NCBI GenBank assembly: GCA_963820825.1
Contig: CAWGBN010000002.1
Coordinates: 288,001 to 352,000 of the forward strand
Direction of reading: 5' to 3'
Length of the DNA: 64,000 nucleotides
From: Vulcanimicrobiota bacterium
Lineage (GTDB): Bacteria; Vulcanimicrobiota; Vulcanimicrobiia; Vulcanimicrobiales; Vulcanimicrobiaceae
Below, piece after piece: positions 50,643 through 60,413 of the stretch. The notes beneath the pieces were generated by a model that was given only the letters and a program-made list of their open reading frames with translations, was not told the origin of the DNA and searched no databases. Numbering within the stretch: the first letter of the stretch is position 1; every line of letters begins with the position of its first letter. The position numbers were made by a program, and so were the translations under genes.

Positions 50643-50918
50643 TTGATTCCAGCCGCACGGCTGCTTTATCTCGCCGTCGCGCCGCCACAGGGTGCGCTCC
50701 TGGGCATGGTGTTGGTGACCGCGCCCCGGCCGCTCTATCCGCACTACGCGGTCGCGGCCGGTTCACTGAAAGCCGCGCTCGCTGATCAAGGAAACGCCGC
50801 CGCGCTGATGTGGATCCTCGGCGGCGCCGTCGTCTTCGGCGCGTTGCTCGTTACGCTCGGGCGCTGGGCTCGGCGCGAACGGGAACCGTCGCTTCTGCGT
50901 CGAACCGGGGCGGCCTAG
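50643..50918 (+). pseudogene. 3' fragment of a CtaG-like cytochrome c oxidase assembly gene
   Basis: RLLYL...LG..L..A..PLYPHY...ALADQ..A..LMW..G resembles the Caa3_CtaG C-terminus; no 5' part. Confidence 0.6.
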
Positions 50919-50956
50919 CTTGCGGTGCTTTGCAACTGCAGAAAGGGATCGCGATC

Positions 50957-52000
50957 GTGCGCTTTTTACACATGACGTACGCGGCTGTCTCGACGCTCGC
51001 GCTGTTTTTGATTACGGGCTGCGCGCAGGATGGTACGCAGCCGGCCATCGTCGGTCAGCAAAACCAGGTCCGAGCGAAACACACGACGTCTTCATGTCCG
51101 TGCCTGTACGTCACCAACTGGGCGGGGCAATCGATTACCGTCTACCCAGTCGGCGTTACCGGTAACGTAGCACCCATAGCAGTCATCGCCGGTCCTCAGA
51201 CCGGAATCGACCTCCCATACGGCGTCGCGTTGGATGCAAGCGGCAACATCTACGTGACAAATTTTGACTACAACTCCGTCACGATCTATGCCGCCGGTGC
51301 TAACGGCAACGTCATGCCAACCGCGACCATCATGGGCTCGAATACTAAGCTGCTCGACCCCGAGGGCATCGGCATCGATCCTAGCAACGGGAACATTTAC
51401 GTTCAGAGCTTAAACGGTCCGAGTGGCAACCCCAGCATCCTGGTCTTTGCCGCCGGTTCAAACGGCAACGTCAGCCCGGCTGAAGTAATCGAAGGTTCAA
51501 AAACGGGGCTGACCGACCCCGTCGATCTTACGTTGGACGGCGGCGCAAACATCTACGATGTCGACGTCGCCAATTTCATCAACGTCTATGCCGCAGGCAC
51601 TACCGGCAACAAAAGGCCAGCGCGCAAGATCAAAGGCGGTCTCACCAAACTGAACCTTCCCTTCGGCGTGACGGTTGACTCCAGTTTCAACGTCTACGCA
51701 GCTAACAACGGCGGCGGCGAGAGCAGTATCACCGTTTATGCCTCCGGCGCAACCGGAAATGTCGCCCCCATCCAACGCATCAAGGGTCGCAAGATTGAAC
51801 TAACAGATCTCCACGGCGTCGCCGTCGACAGTTCACGCAACATCTACGCTTCCAACGGTGCCGGCGAAGTGCGCTCCTGTTCGGGCTGCAACTTCATAGC
51901 CGTCTATGCCTCCGGCGCGACCGGCAACGTAGCGCCCATCAGGGTAATCGCGGGAACGAATACAGGTCTCGACGGTCCGAGCGGGCTCACGATTCACTAA
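50957..52000 (+). CDS. NHL-repeat lipoprotein (CPCLxV family)
   Basis: GTG start, lipobox ITGC, SSCPCLYVTN, NHL repeats. Confidence 0.85.
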   Translation: MRFLHMTYAAVSTLALFLITGCAQDGTQPAIVGQQNQVRAKHTTSSCPCLYVTNWAGQSITVYPVGVTGNVAPIAVIAGPQTGIDLPYGVALDASGNIYVTNFDYNSVTIYAAGANGNVMPTATIMGSNTKLLDPEGIGIDPSNGNIYVQSLNGPSGNPSILVFAAGSNGNVSPAEVIEGSKTGLTDPVDLTLDGGANIYDVDVANFINVYAAGTTGNKRPARKIKGGLTKLNLPFGVTVDSSFNVYAANNGGGESSITVYASGATGNVAPIQRIKGRKIELTDLHGVAVDSSRNIYASNGAGEVRSCSGCNFIAVYASGATGNVAPIRVIAGTNTGLDGPSGLTIH

Positions 52001-53393: not shown

Positions 53394-54598
53394 TTAGAAG
53401 CTATGGAGCCAGTTCTCGGTCCCGGCGGTCGTCATGCTAAATACCGTGCCGTGACCGTTGGCGCCCCCATTTACCGTAGTACCGTAGAGTACGCCGCCGA
53501 CATTTAGCAGCGTCCCCGTGGGGTTGGCGCCGTCTGGGCCGCCGAAATTATAGAGCACGTGATACGTGCCGGTCGGCGTGATAGAGAAGAATACTCCGTC
53601 ATCGTGCGTGCCACCCCTTACAGTTGTGCCGTAGAACGTATTTCCGACATCAGCTAGGCCCCCACCAGGATAATTACCATCCCATCCGCCGGCGAAAGGA
53701 TGCAGTAGCTGAAACGTTCCGGTCGTGCTGATCCTGAAAATACTGCCGTAGAGGCTGCAGTTGTCCCCAAATGCCGTCCCGTAGAGCCACTGACCATGCT
53801 TAATCATTGTTCCGGTGGGGTTATCGCCATAGCCTCCGCCGGGGAAACTGTAGAGAACCGTCTCTATCCCGGACGGGGTCAGAGAGAATATCGTTCCGCA
53901 GTCAGAGGTACCGCCGTTTTCCGTCGTTCCGTACAGCGTACCATTGTCTTTGGTCAAGCCACTCGCCGGCCCGTAGGCATCGGGAAAGTCTTGAAAACTC
54001 CAGAGCAAGCTCTCGGGACCGCCGGCGGGCATCTGAAAAACCGCCCCATAGTTCATCGATCCTCCGAACGAGGTGACACCGTAGAACGTCCCGTTTTGCA
54101 CGACCAGACTGCCGTTGTTTGGCCACTGGCCGTCGGACGGGGCACCCTGAAAACTGTGCTTCACCGTTTCGACACCGGAGGTCGTAACCCGAAAAACGGT
54201 TCCAAGATTCTGAGTGCCGCCTCCTGAGGTAGTGCCCCACAGCGCGTTGCCGCGTTGCACGAGACCTGCAGGGGGTCCCGCGCCGTCCGGTGTTCCTTGG
54301 AAGCTGTAGACTATGTTCTCTACGCCCGTCGTCGTAATGGAGAACACGCTGCCCAGGTTGTGGCTGCCTCCAGAAGACGTCGTTCCGTAGAGAACCCCTC
54401 CGACATCGATTAACCCTGCTCTCGGACTGGCTCCATCGGTCGATGGCGTCACGCGATGGTGTCCCGCAAGGGACTTCTGATCCCCACGTTCGGCCGTCCC
54501 ACATTCATACTTGTCGTCGGCGGGCCCGCATTCGAACCGCAATCGGTCAAACCAAGCCCAATCAAAACCAGCAGCACGCCTACAAGACTCTTAGCCAT
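53394..54598 (-). pseudogene. GloVer-type repeat lipoprotein, frameshifted after the signal peptide
   Basis: ATG 54598 gives MAKSLVGVLLVLIGLGLTDC; repeats lie in ORF 53394..54542 in another frame. Confidence 0.7.
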
Positions 54599-55077
54599 GC
54601 CTTTAATCCTTCCGCCGACCCCGTAGTCGGCTTAAGCTCCTAGTAGTAGCGCAGTATCTGTTCGCGTCCGGTGCTTGTAACCTTGCAAACCTCGCCGCGG
54701 CGTTCGATTGGATTCGCTCCTACTCGTCACCGGCGAAAGTCAGAGCACTCTGTATGGTTGTTGGCTCAGTGGCGCCCGCCCAATCAAGCATGAGCGGCCG
54801 TTTGAACGAGAAGTCCGATGCTACCGCAACACCATGTTGCCGATAGAAAGCGGCGCGCCGTTGATTGTCTTCCTTCAGTGGCAAAACCGCGACCTTGATC
54901 ATGAACGCTGCGTAGCGCTCCGCGCTAAGAGATGACATGTATCGAGCCTCGGCTTCTGCGTTCTCAAAACTCTGCACGTCCCTCGGTGAAATTACAAATG
55001 CGAGGACTGACGTGAGGTGAGAAAACGGCTCAAGTTGAAACTGTGAGTTCCGGGCCTCTGGCCCTAAGGAGACTCAC

Positions 55078-55374
55078 GTGAAAAAGACTCGCTTCACCGA
55101 AGCGCAGATCGTCGCGATCCTCAAAGAGCTCGACGCCGGCACGACCGCGACGGAGCTTGGTCGCCGGCACGGAATTCATGCCAATACGATCCGCCTGTGG
55201 CGCGATAAGTACGCCGGGATGCAAACCAGCGATCTGGTGCGCATGAAACAGCTCGAGGCCGAGAACACGCAGATGCGGCGAATCATCACCCGCCAAGCCC
55301 TCGAGATCGACGCCGTCAGGGAGCTGATCTCAAAAAACGGCTGGGGCCCGAGCAGCGCAAAGAAGCGGTCGTAG
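55078..55374 (+). CDS. IS3 OrfA
   Basis: KKTRFTEAQIVAILKE HTH; slippery AAAAAAC at 55332-55338. Confidence 0.85.
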   Translation: MKKTRFTEAQIVAILKELDAGTTATELGRRHGIHANTIRLWRDKYAGMQTSDLVRMKQLEAENTQMRRIITRQALEIDAVRELISKNGWGPSSAKKRS

Positions 55375-55376
55375 CG

Positions 55377-55890
55377 TTGCACACCAAGGGCCTGTCCACG
55401 TTCCGGGCTTGCGCTATCGTTGCGCAGCCCTACCGATCGCTGTTCAACAAGAAAAAGGCTGAAAAGCGCGCAGACACGCGGCTGAAGGAATGCATCGGCA
55501 AACATGCGCAGCAGCGGCCGCGGTTCGGCTGGCGCCGGCTGTTGATCCTTGCGCGCCGTGAAATACCTGGCACCGGGGAGTACCGATTTCGAAGGCTTTA
55601 TAAGGCTCTTGGGCTTCAAGTACGGCCTCGAAAGAAGCGCAAGGTCAACTACGTCCGCGGAAACGCGATTTCGACCGTTAGTCGCCCCAACGAACGGTGG
55701 TCGATCGACTTCATGCACGACAGTCTTGGGAACGGCCGGGCCTACCGTACGATGAACATCGTTGACGACTTCACGAGCGAATGCCTCGCTTTGGAGCCGG
55801 CGTTCTCGTTTGGTTCTCATGATGTGACGCGTTGCTTCGAGGAGATCGCGTTCGAACGCGGCTTGCCGGCCGCCGTGCGTTTTGACAACG
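55377..55890 (+). pseudogene. IS3 OrfB (rve) N-terminal part; continues at 57447-57523, 58899-59074 and 60348-60363
   Basis: WSIDF, IVDDFTSECL, VRFDN|GPEFTS...FIEPG|KPTQNAKIES...TPLE|YANKF*. Confidence 0.85.
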
Positions 55891-57446
55891 AGCTAAGTAC
55901 GAAAGTCAACCCCACTAGTAGGCATAACGATGCCCGTCGACAGCAAAGCCGAGCTTGCACACCCTTGCCGAGATGCCCCTCGACGACGCAATAGCTCCAA
56001 CCATGATGACACAAGGTCTCGGAAACGAGCCTTCACCGAGCTCAAAACGGAGTTTGCTGCCGATCGGGAGATCCGAGCATTATCTACGAGGTCGTAGTCG
56101 CCTCAACGGCCCAGCGAAGGGATTCTCCCGTCGTGCACCGCCGCTTCGAAATAGTGGCGGTACTCTTTTCCAGATTTGATCAAGCCGTAAGCGACGCGCG
56201 CAATCTTCGCTGCTACGGCGACATACGCTCTTCTTTTGAGATCGGCATCCAGTGGATCGCGACGAACGTAGTCGTCGTACTTTTTCCGAAACGAGTTTCG
56301 GCGCTGATTGATGGCAGCATTGGCTGCCATCCAGAAGGCCCATCGCAGTCGAGCATTGCCGCGTTTGGAGAGCTGCGGTCGGCCGCGTGACGTTCCGGAT
56401 TGCATCGTCGACAAAGAAAGGCCACAGTAGTTAAGAAATTTGCGATGGTGGCTGAAGCGGCGTAAATCTCCGCCTTCAGCGAGAACCGTTAGAGCAACAA
56501 TAGGGCCGATTCCAGGGATAGAGCGCAGGCGCTGATAATCGATGTTGTTCTCGAGTTGTGCGTCAATGAGCTCCTGAAGCTGCCGTCGAAGCTTCATGAG
56601 GCCGATGTACTGCTCAATCGCGAGTTGGAACATCTGGGCGGCCTGCGAATCCGCCGCCACTGGAATTCCCACGCTTTCCTTGGCAATTTCGTAGTAGCTG
56701 GCGACGAGACTTTGCCGAGATGTAAAATGCCCTCCCGCTGCAGTAAACCTTTTGACGAATGTCCTTTTGGTATATTGAAGGACCGTGGAAGGGCATGGCG
56801 CTATGCGCATGACCTCCAAGAACCACTCGCCGCGCGGATTGCTCAGGAAGGGCTCTGCTTCCGGGAAGTACAGCGGCAAATAGTGCGTCATCAGCGAATG
56901 GTAGGCTCGCGTCTTTCGGTCGGTGATCTGCCGATAGGTACCGAGCAGTTCCTGAAGATCTTGGTTGCCACGTTGCAGTGGATCGGCGAACACCTGCGTT
57001 GTACCGCTCTTGAGCAAATGCAGAATCACCTGCGCATCCTTCGGATCGTTTTTATCCCACGAGTTGAACAGCGCTTCTCTCGTCCGATTTGTAGCGATCG
57101 ACGATACGAAATGAACGCGGTGGCCTCGCCGGAGCAAGAAGTTCGCCAGGGGTCGGTGATAGTCTCCGGTTGGTTCCAGCGCGACCTCGCAGGGAAGATG
57201 CGGCGCCAGAATCCCTGCCAACTCGTCGAAACCTTCTTGCGTGTTTGGAACTGTCAAACGCCGGCGAATGCCGGCCTCGTCCTCCAGCAGCGCCACGTGT
57301 CGGTTTTTGGCGACGTCGATTGCGAGCCAGGCGGGCGTCGTTGGAGCAGCACGGAACTTTGCCATAGGGTCGTTGCCTCCAGCGGAGATGAGTCAGATAC
57401 ACCTCCGTTCGCCATGGGGGCAGCGCCCCGTCTTGTATGTATCACG
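55891..57446 (-). mobile_element. IS110-family element
   Basis: Removing it restores GAC AAC GGC CCA GAG of the IS3 gene; ACG core at both ends; no terminal IRs. Confidence 0.9.
56103..57365 (-). CDS. IS110-family DEDD recombinase/transposase
   Basis: AIDVAK, LEPTG, KNDPKDA, IPGIG, CGL...QSG, SKRGNARLR. Confidence 0.92.
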   Translation of the reverse strand: MAKFRAAPTTPAWLAIDVAKNRHVALLEDEAGIRRRLTVPNTQEGFDELAGILAPHLPCEVALEPTGDYHRPLANFLLRRGHRVHFVSSIATNRTREALFNSWDKNDPKDAQVILHLLKSGTTQVFADPLQRGNQDLQELLGTYRQITDRKTRAYHSLMTHYLPLYFPEAEPFLSNPRGEWFLEVMRIAPCPSTVLQYTKRTFVKRFTAAGGHFTSRQSLVASYYEIAKESVGIPVAADSQAAQMFQLAIEQYIGLMKLRRQLQELIDAQLENNIDYQRLRSIPGIGPIVALTVLAEGGDLRRFSHHRKFLNYCGLSLSTMQSGTSRGRPQLSKRGNARLRWAFWMAANAAINQRRNSFRKKYDDYVRRDPLDADLKRRAYVAVAAKIARVAYGLIKSGKEYRHYFEAAVHDGRIPSLGR

Positions 57447-57523
57447 GCCCAGAGTTTACGAGTCGCGCGATGCTGCAATGGGGTGCAGAGCAGAAAGTCC
57501 ATCTACACTTCATCGAACCCGGC

Positions 57524-58890
57524 GATTACGTCCCGGCGCGTGGTGTATGAACTGCGACCCCGACGAAGTGGGCGATCAGCTGATAACGGCCGAAAGCCTG
57601 GCGATCTGATTGTCGCTTACGGCGTTCATTCCTTCGAGCTGCATGTACCGCCGCTGCAACTGCCATTCATCGTTCTGTTCCAGCAGCAGCGCACCGACGA
57701 GTCGTACGATCGCGGCCTCGTTGGGAAAGATGCCGACGACGTCAGTCCGGCGTTTGATCTCGGCGTTGATGCGCTCGAGCGGGTTGGTTGAAGCGAGTTG
57801 TTTGCGGTGGGCTTTGGGAAAGGCCATGAAGGCGAGAACGTCTTCTTCGGAATCGTCCAACATCGCTGAGAGCTTGGGAAACTTCTCGCGGAGTTGATCG
57901 GCGACGGTGCGCCATTGTTGGTGCGCCGCCTCGGCCGTTTCTTGAGCGAACACCGTATTGATCAGCGCACGAACCATTTCTCGCTGCCCTTTGCCGGCGT
58001 GGGCTAGCGCGTTGCGCATGAAGTGCACGCGGCAGCGCTGCCACGTCGCCTTGAAGACTTTGGCGATCGCGGCTTTGAGACCGATGTGGCGAATCGGAGA
58101 TCACGAACTTGACGCCACGCAGTCCGCGCCGTCTCAGGCTTCTGAGAAACTCGCGTCCAGAACGGCTCGGCTTCGCTGGGACCCGTCGCCAAGCCTAAAA
58201 GCTCGCGCGTACCGTCGGTATTGACGCCAACGGCCAGTATTACGGCGACCGAAACGATGCGGCCCGACGCGCGCACTTTCACGTACGTCGCGTCGATCCA
58301 CAGATACGGCCAGTCGCCCTCGATCGGCCGATTGAGAAACGCTTGCACGCGCTCGTCGATCTCGCTGCACAAGCGCGAGACTGGCTCTTGGAGATCCCCG
58401 TCATCCCCAGTGCCTTCACCAGTTCGTCAACCGAGCGGGTTGAGATGCCCTGAATATACGCTTCCTGGATCACCGCCGTCAGCGCTTTCTCGGCCGTGCG
58501 ACGAGGCTCCAGGAAGCCAGGGAAATAGCTGCCCTTGCGCAGCTTAGGGATGCGCAGATCGACTGCGCCGGTGCGCGTTTCCCAGAGCCGGTCGCGATAC
58601 CCGTTGCGGCAGTTCTCGCGAGGAGCGGCTCGCTCGCCATAGGCGGCGCCGCAGAGGGCCTCCACGTCCATCTCCATGAGTTTCTGGGCGGCGAGATGAA
58701 GCATGTCGCGCACGAGATCGACGTCGGGGCCCTTTTCAGCGAGCTCCGTAAGTGCGATACTGGTCTTGGCCATTGTGGGTTCCTTTCGTCGGTAGTTTCT
58801 TTGCAAAAACAACCTTCGCCGAAAGCCACGATGGCCGCTCTCTATCCTATGAGGGCGGCCCCTTCATACACCACGCCCTGGGACACGATC
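57524..58890 (-). mobile_element. IS256-family element
   Basis: 27-bp imperfect IRs; 8-bp target duplication AACCCGGC (57516-57523 and 58891-58898). Confidence 0.9.
57576..58773 (-). pseudogene. IS256 transposase, frameshifted
   Basis: [53 protein letters not shown] across three frames. Confidence 0.85.
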
Positions 58891-59162
58891 AACCCGGCAA
58901 ACCAACGCAAAACGCCAAGATCGAATCGCTAAACGGCCCGATCCGAGACGAGCTGCTCAATGCCCACGTTTCACGACGATCTAAACGAGGCGCGGGCGCT
59001 TGCCGCAGTTGGAGAAAGGACTATAACGAGGTCCGGCCGCACTCGTCTCTCGGCGGCTTGACGCCGCTGGAGTAAGAGGTGGCCTCGGTTAGTCGGACAG
59101 CCTGATATGTGATGATTTCGCTCCCTCTGGGTCGAAAAGATCCGTGAAAAGGAGCAGTCATC

Positions 59163-59462
59163 TTGAAACGTTCTCGCCGCAACCACACGCCGGCCTTCAA
59201 GGCTAAGGTGGCGATCGCCGCGATCAAGGGCGATCAGACCGTCGCCGAGCTCGCCAAGCGCTTCGACGTCCATCCGAATTCGATCGTGCAGTGGAAAACC
59301 CAACTGCTCGAGCGAGCCGATGAAGCCTTCGATGGCGACGGACCAAAGCAGAACGGCCCCGATATCAAAGAGCTTCACGCCAAGATCGGCCAGTTAGCGC
59401 TGGAGAACGATTTTTTAGAACACGCGCTCGGACGTATCGACGGGTCGAGCGCAAAGCGATGA
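59163..59462 (+). CDS. IS3 OrfA (inner element)
   Basis: RRNHTPAFKAKVA..., KIGQLALENDFL; slippery TTTTTTA near 59411. Confidence 0.85.
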   Translation: MKRSRRNHTPAFKAKVAIAAIKGDQTVAELAKRFDVHPNSIVQWKTQLLERADEAFDGDGPKQNGPDIKELHAKIGQLALENDFLEHALGRIDGSSAKR

Positions 59463-60284
59463 TCGATCGCGACCACGCTTTGCCGCTCTCGCATCAAGCG
59501 GAGCTGCTGGACCTCTCTCGCAGCGGTCTTTACTACGGAGCCGTACCGGTCTCGGGCAGCGGATCTCGAACTCATGCGTGAGATCGATCGGCTGCACACC
59601 GACTACCCGTTCGCCGGCGCAAGAATGCTGCGCGACTTCCTGCGGCTCAGGGGCTATCGTGTCGGCCGCCGGCATATCGCGCGGCTGATGCGCCTGATGG
59701 GCATTGAAGCGCTCTATCGCAAGAAGAAAGGCACCAAGACCAATCCGGAGCACCCCGTCTTCCCCTACCTTCTTAGAAACCTCGTCATCGAACGCCCGAA
59801 TCACGTCTGGGCAGCGGATATCTCGTACATTCCGATGCGCCGCGGTTTCTTGTATTTGTTCGCGGTACTCGACTGGGCAACGCGACGGGTTCTGGCTTGG
59901 CGGCTCTCCAACAGCTTGACGACGGATTTCTGCATCGATGCCGTCGAGGAGGCGATCGCAAAGTACGGCTGTCCTGAAATCTTCAACACCGATCAAGGAT
60001 GCCAATTCACCGACAAGGATTTCGTCGGCATGCTCAAGACTACGAGATCGCGATCAGCATGGACGGCCGGGGCGCCTGGCGCGACAACGTCTTCGTCGAA
60101 CGCTTCTGGCGCTCGATTAAGTACGAAGAGGTCTATTTGCGTGCTTACGACTCTGCGAGCGAGGGTAAGCACTTCATCGGCCGCTACGATCGATTCTATA
60201 ACGCAAACCGACCGCATTCGTCGCTCGGCGGCCAAACGCCGGACGCGGTATACTTCAGTCAGGCCGACCAAAAAGGCGGCGTAA
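59459..60284 (+). CDS. IS3 OrfB (inner element) with apparent indels
   Basis: WAADISYI, FNTDQGCQF, DNVFVERFWRSIKYE. Confidence 0.8.
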
Positions 60285-60413
60285 CTGGCGGAGTCATCAC
60301 ATAACGGGTGCCGATTTCGTGTCCAAAAAACCGGCGCCACCTCTGTATGCGAACAAGTTCTAAAATGACACCTGCTCACAGTTCCTCCTTATGCTAAAGA
60401 CCACCTCACGTCA

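Follow-up and report, generated by a model that had tools for sequence, protein, structure and literature searches.

What directs an insertion sequence into the catalytic codons of another transposase is the question raised by the window analysed here, a stretch of 64,000 nucleotides (nt) from the Vulcanimicrobiota bacterium assembly GCA_963820825.1 (contig CAWGBN010000002.1), in which an IS110-type element interrupts the transposase gene of an IS3-family element. The first-pass annotation of this DNA had noticed that the element carries an 11-nt copy of its own target and had proposed a candidate bridge or seek RNA aimed at the D-N-G-P codons of IS3 transposases. The evidence presented below makes it highly probable that the insertion is an active-looking IS110-type element with a two-loop bridge RNA at the 3′ end of its recombinase gene, the guides of which read the Asp-Asn-Gly codons of transposases with an rve domain.

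The element and its sites in one genome

The element occupies positions 55891–57446 on the minus strand and is 1556 bp long when a single copy of the shared ACG is counted; a second ACG at 55888–55890 makes its boundaries uncertain by 3 nt. The span 55891–57446 is common to four copies in the genome, which are 98–100% identical, and homology stops at both junctions. The one open reading frame (ORF) of the element runs from 57365 to 56103 on the minus strand and encodes a recombinase of 420 amino acids (aa) with a DEDD RuvC-like domain and a Tnp domain. It leaves 80 nt upstream and, in agreement with the earlier description of a 212-nt non-coding 3′ end, 212 nt downstream (56102–55891).

The insertion splits the host transposase gene within the codons for F-D-N-G-P-E-F, the frame being broken at 55890/55891 and regained at 57447. 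The left part of the host IS3-family element (55078–55890, plus strand) contains orfA (55078–55374), with an HTH_Tnp_1 match of 2.1e-18, and orfB, which extends from 55377 up to ..A-A-V-R-F-D-N-(G). The rve match of orfB stops at profile position 74 of 102, which is the last residue before 55891. The continuation of orfB (57447–57530, plus strand) reads (G)-P-E-F-T-S-R-A-M-L-Q-W.. by translation. With a slash marking the junction, the left flank is ..TTTGACAACG/AGCTAAG.. and the right flank is ..TATCACG/GCCCAGAG..; the empty site rebuilt from the flanks is TTTGACAACGGCCCAGAG, and ACG is found at both junctions.

The genome (2.98 Mb in nine contigs, 64% G+C) harbors four copies of the element, with 100, 100, 100 and 98% identity, in three types of host. 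The flanks are TTTGACAACG/../GCCCAGAGTTT in the first type (the window copy), TGCGATAACG/../GCCCAGAGTTC in the second and GTTGATAACG/../GTCCGGAAAAC in the third, which accounts for two copies (L003 and L004). None of the copies lies in an unrelated target, the outcome that the first-pass annotation had named as refuting its idea: all four are placed in D-N-G-P-E codons, belonging to three different rve transposases. Uninterrupted paralogues in which exactly these flanks are joined are present on contig C8 for the second host type and on C2 and C9 for the third. These paralogues of the L002 and L003/L004 host elements back the empty site as reconstructed in the first-pass annotation. For the IS3 of the window itself, the genome yielded no intact copy. 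Comparison of occupied and empty sites demonstrates that insertion adds the element and one extra ACG, and nothing more. Four of the seven transposase sites matching the target in this genome are occupied.

The 98% copy (L004/L102, C6:628000–629569) has an open frame of 270 aa around the Tnp domain, versus 429 aa in the other three, and is probably broken. The genome also contains a second, unrelated IS110-family gene (L101, 1480–2334, minus strand; C8:408301–408552) of the short IS621-like type. Its open frame of 284 aa is truncated and has H-E-S-W-S at the place expected for the S-G motif, so this gene is probably a remnant.

The predicted two-loop RNA and its guides

A scan of GTDB representative genomes yielded at least 583 confirmed relatives of the element. 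The best 80 of them (45–78% identity, loci L005–L084) were analysed; they come from Eremiobacterota, Acidobacteriota, Nitrospirota, Alpha- and Gammaproteobacteria, Planctomycetota and other groups. Five plasmid copies are found in Sphingomonas, Acidisarcina, Rhizobium (ISRel25), Methylorubrum (ISMex12) and Yersinia (ISYps2), the last three being named members of the clade with 44–48% identity (ISfinder names as given in RefSeq annotation). No clade member with a different target, as a control of programmability, was found down to 42–44% identity; the next plasmid match is at 28%.

At the end of the recombinase gene, the motif ..GCCGU-N-GAGGC..loop..G-A-CCUC-GUAGAUAAUG.. is near-invariant in 75 of the 80 relatives. 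An alignment of 63 distinct sequences was built from this region, leaving out truncated loci (L012, L059, L068 and L082), loci at contig ends (L013 and L027) and identical duplicates. RNAalifold predicts 31 pairs in five helices from the alignment, and 25 of these pairs show compensatory changes. Paired bases occupy 95.2% of the alignment cells, versus 34–47% after shifting the partners by one to three columns, and none of 500 shuffles reaches the observed value. The bridge RNA core predicted in this way (55995–56133, minus strand) begins inside the last recombinase codons and consists of a target-binding loop module (56133–56062), a linker and a donor-binding loop module (56052–55995). The two modules are alike in design: a basal stem leads to a large internal loop, beyond which stands a distal hairpin with a bulged A. 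The distal hairpin of the target loop (56088–56104, minus strand; helix 3) reads GAGGCG-ACUA-CG-A-CCUC and has compensatory changes in five of seven pairs; that of the donor loop (56013–56033, minus strand; helix 5) reads AAGGCUCG-UUUC-CGAG-A-CCUU and has them in six of seven. A scan of positions 55000–58000 against Rfam (E up to 10) gave one chance-level match, with E 3.1, to the model of an unrelated long non-coding RNA.

The recombinase frame ends within the target-binding loop (56103–56133), and in many relatives its stop is the UAG of the GUAGAUAAUG strand; the same bases thus encode both the end of the protein and the guides of the RNA. Most relatives (e.g., L017 and L035) carry ..GUGGAAGCCACUUGG.. 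downstream of the donor loop, at about columns 216–238 of the alignment, and this segment is absent in the subclade of the window copy. It repeats both strands of the basal stem of the target loop and changes along with the stem (GCGG..CCGC in L035), which makes an alternative pairing or a closing helix possible.

The guides of IS621 follow a strand rule: both left guides (target and donor) pair with the bottom strand, both right guides with the top strand, and all of them contain the core (PMC11208160). The target of the element studied here is, in element orientation, ..CTCTGGGC-CG-TTGTCAAA.., the circle junction is ..CTTAGCT-CG-TGATACAT.., and four guides with the same strand rules can be placed on the RNA. 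The left target guide CUGGGCCGU (56106–56114, minus strand) has the sense of the top strand (left target, core CG and U) and pairs at nine of nine positions with the coding strand of the host transposase, ACGGCCCAG. Within the guide, 60 of the 63 alignment rows have GCCGU and three GCCAU. The guide belongs to the 11-mer CAACGGCCCAG (56104–56114, plus strand), which overlaps the final recombinase codons L-G-R-stop; besides the split target, this is the sole copy of the 11-mer on either strand of the window, with 0.02 copies expected (100 shuffles). The candidate RNA of the first-pass annotation is thus corroborated, the 11-mer lying on the 5′ strand of the first internal loop of the two-loop RNA supported by covariation, the place of the left target guide in IS621 (PMC11208160). 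As a guide, the 11-mer is to be shortened to the nine bases of CUGGGCCGU, since the U that follows them is variable among relatives and the last G is already the first base of the hairpin stem.

The right target guide GAUAAUG (56078–56084, minus strand) pairs with top-strand C-R-T-T-R-T-C, the complement of G-AAY-GAY. With the window target it forms seven of seven pairs, two of them wobble; CGTTGTC gives two U.G pairs and CGTTATC one. The guide is GAUAAUG in 60 of the 63 rows and GACAAUG in the other three.

The donor guides covary with the ends of the element. The left donor guide GAGCUCGG (56036–56043, minus strand) has the same sense as the right end, TAGCT plus the core CG. Over the three bases before the core, guide and right end agree in 46 of 49 loci, the agreement spans five types (GTA, GGA, GCT, GCC and ATA) and none of 5000 permutations is as good. 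The right donor guide AUCAUGG (about 56001–56007, minus strand) pairs, with one U.G pair, with top-strand T-CG-TGAT at the circle junction, that is, with the core plus the first bases of the left end. In 47 of 58 loci, over four types, it correctly predicts the three bases at the start of the left end, and again none of 5000 permutations does as well. Two other candidate pairings were dropped. GGCUCGU at 56031–56025, taken at one stage for the left donor guide, proved in the alignment to be the 5′ arm of the donor-loop hairpin, and the pairing of CGUUUUGA (56049–56042) with the flank TCAAAACG is attributed to chance, since the other three copies differ there.

These guides suggest how insertion could proceed. 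The left target guide would pair with the coding strand of the prey over A-AC-GGC-CCA-G and the right one with the opposite strand over GAY-AAY-G, and between them the two would recognize Asp-Asn-Gly-(Pro/Ser/Thr) as encoded in the genes of DDE transposases of the rve type (retroviral-integrase fold). On the donor side, GAGCUCGG and AUCAUGG would read the right and left ends of the element where these meet in the circle, ..TTAGCT-CG-TGATAC... The element would then be inserted by recombination at the shared core CG, without duplication and always antisense to the prey gene, and the catalytic domain would be cut directly after the Asp of the motif. We take this Asp to be the second catalytic residue of the DDE triad in the retroviral-integrase fold. 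The RNA is presumably expressed and bound by the recombinase, and the specificity is likely to be set by guide–target pairing and not by protein contacts.

The bases opposite the third codon positions deserve attention. In the right target guide, the third positions of the Asp and Asn codons are each faced by U; in the left target guide, those of the Asn and Gly codons are faced by G and that of the Pro codon by U. With G or U at these places, synonymous C/T and A/G variants would still pair through G.T or U.G wobble. All three synonymous target differences in this genome (GAC/GAT, GGC/GGT and CCA/CCG) remain paired in this way. To judge from these pairings, the guides appear to tolerate synonymous codon variants, which would let a single invariant guide find IS3, IS481, IS30 and Mu-like elements in any genome, and this tolerance may be functional.

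Choice of the site by the protein, with the 11-nt match as a by-product of, for example, coding constraint on the recombinase C-terminus, would fit two of the observations: the match overlaps the codons L-G-R-stop, and targets and guides show no measurable covariation. Against it, the stop codon shifts among relatives, falling before, inside or after the motif (often as the UAG of GUAGAUAAUG), while the nucleotide motif is fixed; therefore, conservation acts at the nucleotide level. Moreover, a second segment, complementary to the other half of the target, is found on the opposite strand of the loop. We consider it very improbable that the protein makes the choice.

Another explanation is that the conserved 3′ segment works as DNA, forming hairpins in a single-stranded circle or subterminal binding sites through which the recombinase would partly read the D-N-G site. 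The covariation of the stems fits RNA and single-stranded DNA alike, no RNA evidence was obtained among the sequencing runs listed, and single-stranded circles are reported for IS621 in a 2026 preprint. Nevertheless, the layout matches the experimentally established bridge RNA point by point, with two loops, left and right guides and the core in each (PMC11208160). The recombinase is homologous to that of IS621, and tolerance of the G.U type at synonymous positions is a property of RNA pairing. A role as DNA is thus improbable, and the segment is better read as a bridge RNA.

Targets across relatives

The target class recurs among the 80 relatives. The right junction was located in 56 loci. 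In 55 of these, CGTTRTC, the reverse complement of GAY-AAC-G, forms the 3′ flank, and 48 of the 56 have a 5′ flank coding for G-x-E, x being mostly P (19), S (16) or T (8). Matches of the flanks to Pfam and NCBIfam profiles serve as an independent check of these junction patterns. Of 52 translated downstream flanks, 38 match rve, and every one of these matches stops at profile position 74 of 102, on the last residue of the translation. Upstream, rve_3 is matched by 47 of 60 translated flanks, with the start at residue 15–18 and, in 44 of them, with E below 0.001. At least one rve-type flank is present in 53 of the 80 loci. According to NCBIfam, hosts of the IS30 family are broken at 197/198 of 267 residues and those of the IS481 family at 196/197 of 284, and one host has a Mu transposase C-terminal domain. 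The proposed targeting of IS3 D-N-G-P codons therefore holds for most of the 80 relatives and for plasmid copies and is too narrow in one respect, as the prey also includes IS481, IS30 and Mu-like elements. The accompanying view of the element as a parasite of another insertion sequence (IS) is supported and widened by the rve-transposase flanks.

In the plasmid copies of Sphingomonas, Acidisarcina and Rhizobium, both flanks are transposase codons broken at D-N/G; ISRel25 lies in ..I-V-S-D-N/G-T-E-L-T-S... In ISMex12, which adjoins G-P-E-F-I-A.., the RNA region is interrupted by an IS3-like element, so that only the G-P-E-F side is visible. ISYps2, the right target guide of which is the variant GAUAACG, has the flank CGTTATC at a non-transposase site, being inserted in out-of-frame GATAACGG. 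A further non-transposase site is that of L038, in a pyridine-nucleotide oxidoreductase gene at ..L-D-N/G-R-E. The sites of ISYps2 and L038 indicate that recognition takes place at the level of DNA and not of protein.

These sites also bear on the question of whether the shared flanks reflect independent targeted insertions or the copying of already nested IS3::IS110 units. Copying would be in line with the presence of L003 and L004 in the same type of host element and with the occupation of all five copies of one Granulicella host element. It does not account for three different host genes in the genome studied, two of them with empty paralogues, for hosts from four transposase families across the loci, or for non-transposase sites sharing the same DNA motif. 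As a general account of the flanks, nested copying is hardly credible, and for the family it is already contradicted.

At the left junction (L005–L084), 30 loci have CG as the core, 23 have CA and three have CC. The right junction was found only at C-R-TTRT sites, where the core is CG in all 56 cases and never CA. No link was found between the core in the left donor guide and the left-junction core, and that between the left core and GAT/GAC codons is not significant (p 0.20). The flanks of the CA loci are lower in G+C (52.5% vs. 59.0%, p 0.02), which fits AAT codons in the target. Empty paralogues bearing on the origin of CA and CG from AAT and AAC codons were found in none of four other genomes, with five of five copies occupied in one and a single-copy host in three. 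In the Granulicella genome of L031 (L089–L093), the five copies of one IS3-type host element are all occupied at the same site, and no empty copy was found. In L033, the sequence after the right end (junction at about 2700–2715) is CGTTGTACCTTC.. and is similar to the left end of the element itself (CGTAGTACCTTC), which suggests a tandem or head-to-tail arrangement.

In the excised circle, a junction promoter could be assembled. The arithmetic of the first-pass annotation is correct here: on joining the ends, the −35-like TTGACT of the right end (55904–55909, minus strand), read from the sequence as 55909–55904, comes to lie 18 nt before the −10-like TACATA of the left end (57436–57441, minus strand; read as 57441–57436), which is preceded by TG-A and faces the −35 hexamer only in the circle.

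Several points weigh against the reading of the element as guided by its bridge RNA to rve-transposase codons. The patterns by which the junctions of the relatives were located presuppose part of the motif. The asymmetry between left and right cores is unexplained. The target and the target guides are both nearly invariant, and at the five positions where the left target guide varies, its agreement with the target is only slightly higher than in permuted pairs (124 of 280 compared with 113, 109 of 5000 permutations being as high). All three matches to the 12-nt consensus GAYAACGGYCCR outside transposases in this genome (C6:-246343, C1:-11519 and C8:-447191) are empty, which could be due to purifying selection or to an additional layer of specificity. 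The single-sequence fold of the window copy is no better than shuffles (z −0.35) and its minimum-energy structure lacks the two loops, so that it is the comparison of aligned sequences that carries the structure; of the minus-strand fold suggested earlier, the two-loop form emerges from the 63 sequences and not from the window copy. Among the 19 sequencing runs listed, none recorded as RNA holds the stretch. A promoter upstream of the RNA was not found, the one site predicted (0.7 expected) lying inside the loop itself. As for the circle promoter, TACATA shares three of six bases with TATAAT, being a weak −10 that fails a stricter −10 rule, and only 25 of 50 relatives combine a TTGAC-type hexamer 18–19 nt from the core with a −10-like hexamer at the left end.

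One of the empty non-transposase consensus sites encodes ..M-Y-S-T-D-N-G-P-E-N-D-T-W-P-D...

A broader reading can be put forward tentatively, at somewhat less than even chances: that this widespread IS110-type clade is an obligate hyperparasite of retroviral-integrase-fold DDE transposons, with guides that act as a degenerate codon reader and are able to saturate and silence the prey. The one guide would then find IS3, IS481, IS30 and Mu-like elements in any host reached by horizontal transfer. If true, the strategy would be both a safe harbour for the element and a natural brake on other insertion sequences.

Relation to known elements and neighbouring features

The recombinase matches PF01548 (DEDD_Tnp_IS110, 7.6e-21) and PF02371 (Transposase_20, 8.8e-28). 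It aligns with the IS621 transposase 8wt6 (E 4e-19), with QSGTS of the query opposite ESGSS of IS621 in the alignment of CGLSLSTMQSGTS with ..ESGSS. The segments IDVAK, LEPTGDYH and DKNDPKDA align with the corresponding segments of IS621 and contain what we take to be the catalytic residues D, E, D and D. The serine motif S-G has been described as G--P----SG (PMC11187229), and the recombinase carries L in place of the P.

The DEDD RuvC-like domain, the Tnp domain with an S-G motif, the lack of terminal inverted repeats and the lack of duplication beyond the core are all features of the IS110 family. No end-to-end inverted repeat was seen among the 25 longest of 72 repeat pairs, and no subterminal inverted repeats link the ends. 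The narrow IS110 group is characterized by a long non-coding region with the guide RNA upstream of the gene, and here 80 nt lie upstream versus 212 nt downstream. The IS1111 group has subterminal inverted repeats of 7–17 bp, absent here, and transposases of 330–350 aa (PMC11187229), compared with 420 aa. Because subterminal inverted repeats are lacking and the protein is of 420 aa, the element is of the IS110 type and not of the IS1111 type by the features used in PMC11187229, yet it has a downstream non-coding region typical of IS1111.

The closest mechanistic parallels are IS621 and ISCro4, which share with the element a DEDD and Tnp recombinase, a two-loop RNA with the same guide strand rules and the core in each guide (PMC11208160), the absence of inverted repeats and the absence of duplication beyond the core. 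The differences concern the position of the RNA, which lies downstream of the gene and overlaps its end here and in the left end in IS621 and ISCro4; the core, which is CG here, the right guides carrying UG; and the natural target, a protein-coding motif of other transposons. In addition, the recombinase has 420 aa, compared with 328 for the solved IS621 chain, and only about 140 residues of the C-terminal half align well.

The seekRNA elements of the IS1111 group (ISEc11, ISKpn4 and ISPa11) resemble the element in that a long non-coding region and the guide RNA follow the transposase gene and that short matches to both target strands overlap at the insertion point (PMC11187229). They differ from it in the subterminal inverted repeats and the protein size given above. 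The order of the guides, with the one pairing with the bottom strand first, is the IS110-type order of PMC11187229, although the strand convention of that paper may differ from the one used here. The same paper notes IS110-type elements with a downstream non-coding region, the targets of which are not described in the part of its text available, and shows IS4321 and ISPa11 logos, attC and repetitive extragenic palindromes (REP) as targets. The present element adds a type of bridge RNA that is placed 3′ of an IS110-type recombinase gene and overlaps its coding end, with a CG core and bulged-A hairpins.

IS4321 and IS5075 home on the inverted repeats of the Tn21 family. These elements, the IS1111-attC group and ISPa11, ISPpu9 and ISPpu10 are similar to the element in their site-specific insertion into conserved repeats of other genetic elements, but their targets are non-coding structural sites of one element type. 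The element described here targets catalytic-motif codons common to several transposase families, uses the same guide across families and phyla and inactivates the prey.

In the founding papers on bridge and seek RNAs, ISRel25, ISMex12 and ISYps2 appear in trees, sequence lists, an identity matrix and a copy-number table, with no description of targets in the parts available; the copy-number table gives ISRel25 as having 129 copies at five unique sites. IS110-type elements directed at D-N-G codons were not found described in the literature searched, which did not extend to ISfinder entries. The mechanism belongs to a known kind, as bridge and seek RNAs and IS110/IS1111 elements homing on repeats or transposon ends have been described before, and the target class, catalytic-motif codons common to several transposon families, appears to be new. 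The natural target is in this case a protein-coding catalytic motif held constant by selection on the prey. A natural guide that would tolerate synonymous variation by wobble pairs bears on mismatch rules for the design of bridge recombinases. The inactivation of one transposon family by another across phyla bears on IS population dynamics and on the annotation of nested elements, and the finding also bears on why the clade, with at least 583 confirmed relatives, spreads so widely.

Within the window, orfB of the host IS3 has a second interruption, after ..H-F-I-E-P-G, where an IS256-type element is inserted (57531–58856, minus strand); the Mutator-family transposase of this element consists of three overlapping ORF pieces (57576–58028, 58004–58372 and 58279–58812). 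The rve_3 tail of the doubly cut IS3 follows at 58857–59075 (1.4e-21). The next IS3-family element (59163–60300), with HTH_Tnp_1, HTH_21 and rve matches, has T-D-Q-G-C-Q-F in place of the D-N-G motif and is unoccupied, which fits the specificity of the guide. Two long ORFs at 53394–54542 (minus strand; no Pfam match at E up to 0.01) and 50810–52000 (plus strand) contain repeats rich in G-x-x-Y-G-T-T and N-I-Y-V and probably encode secreted repeat proteins.

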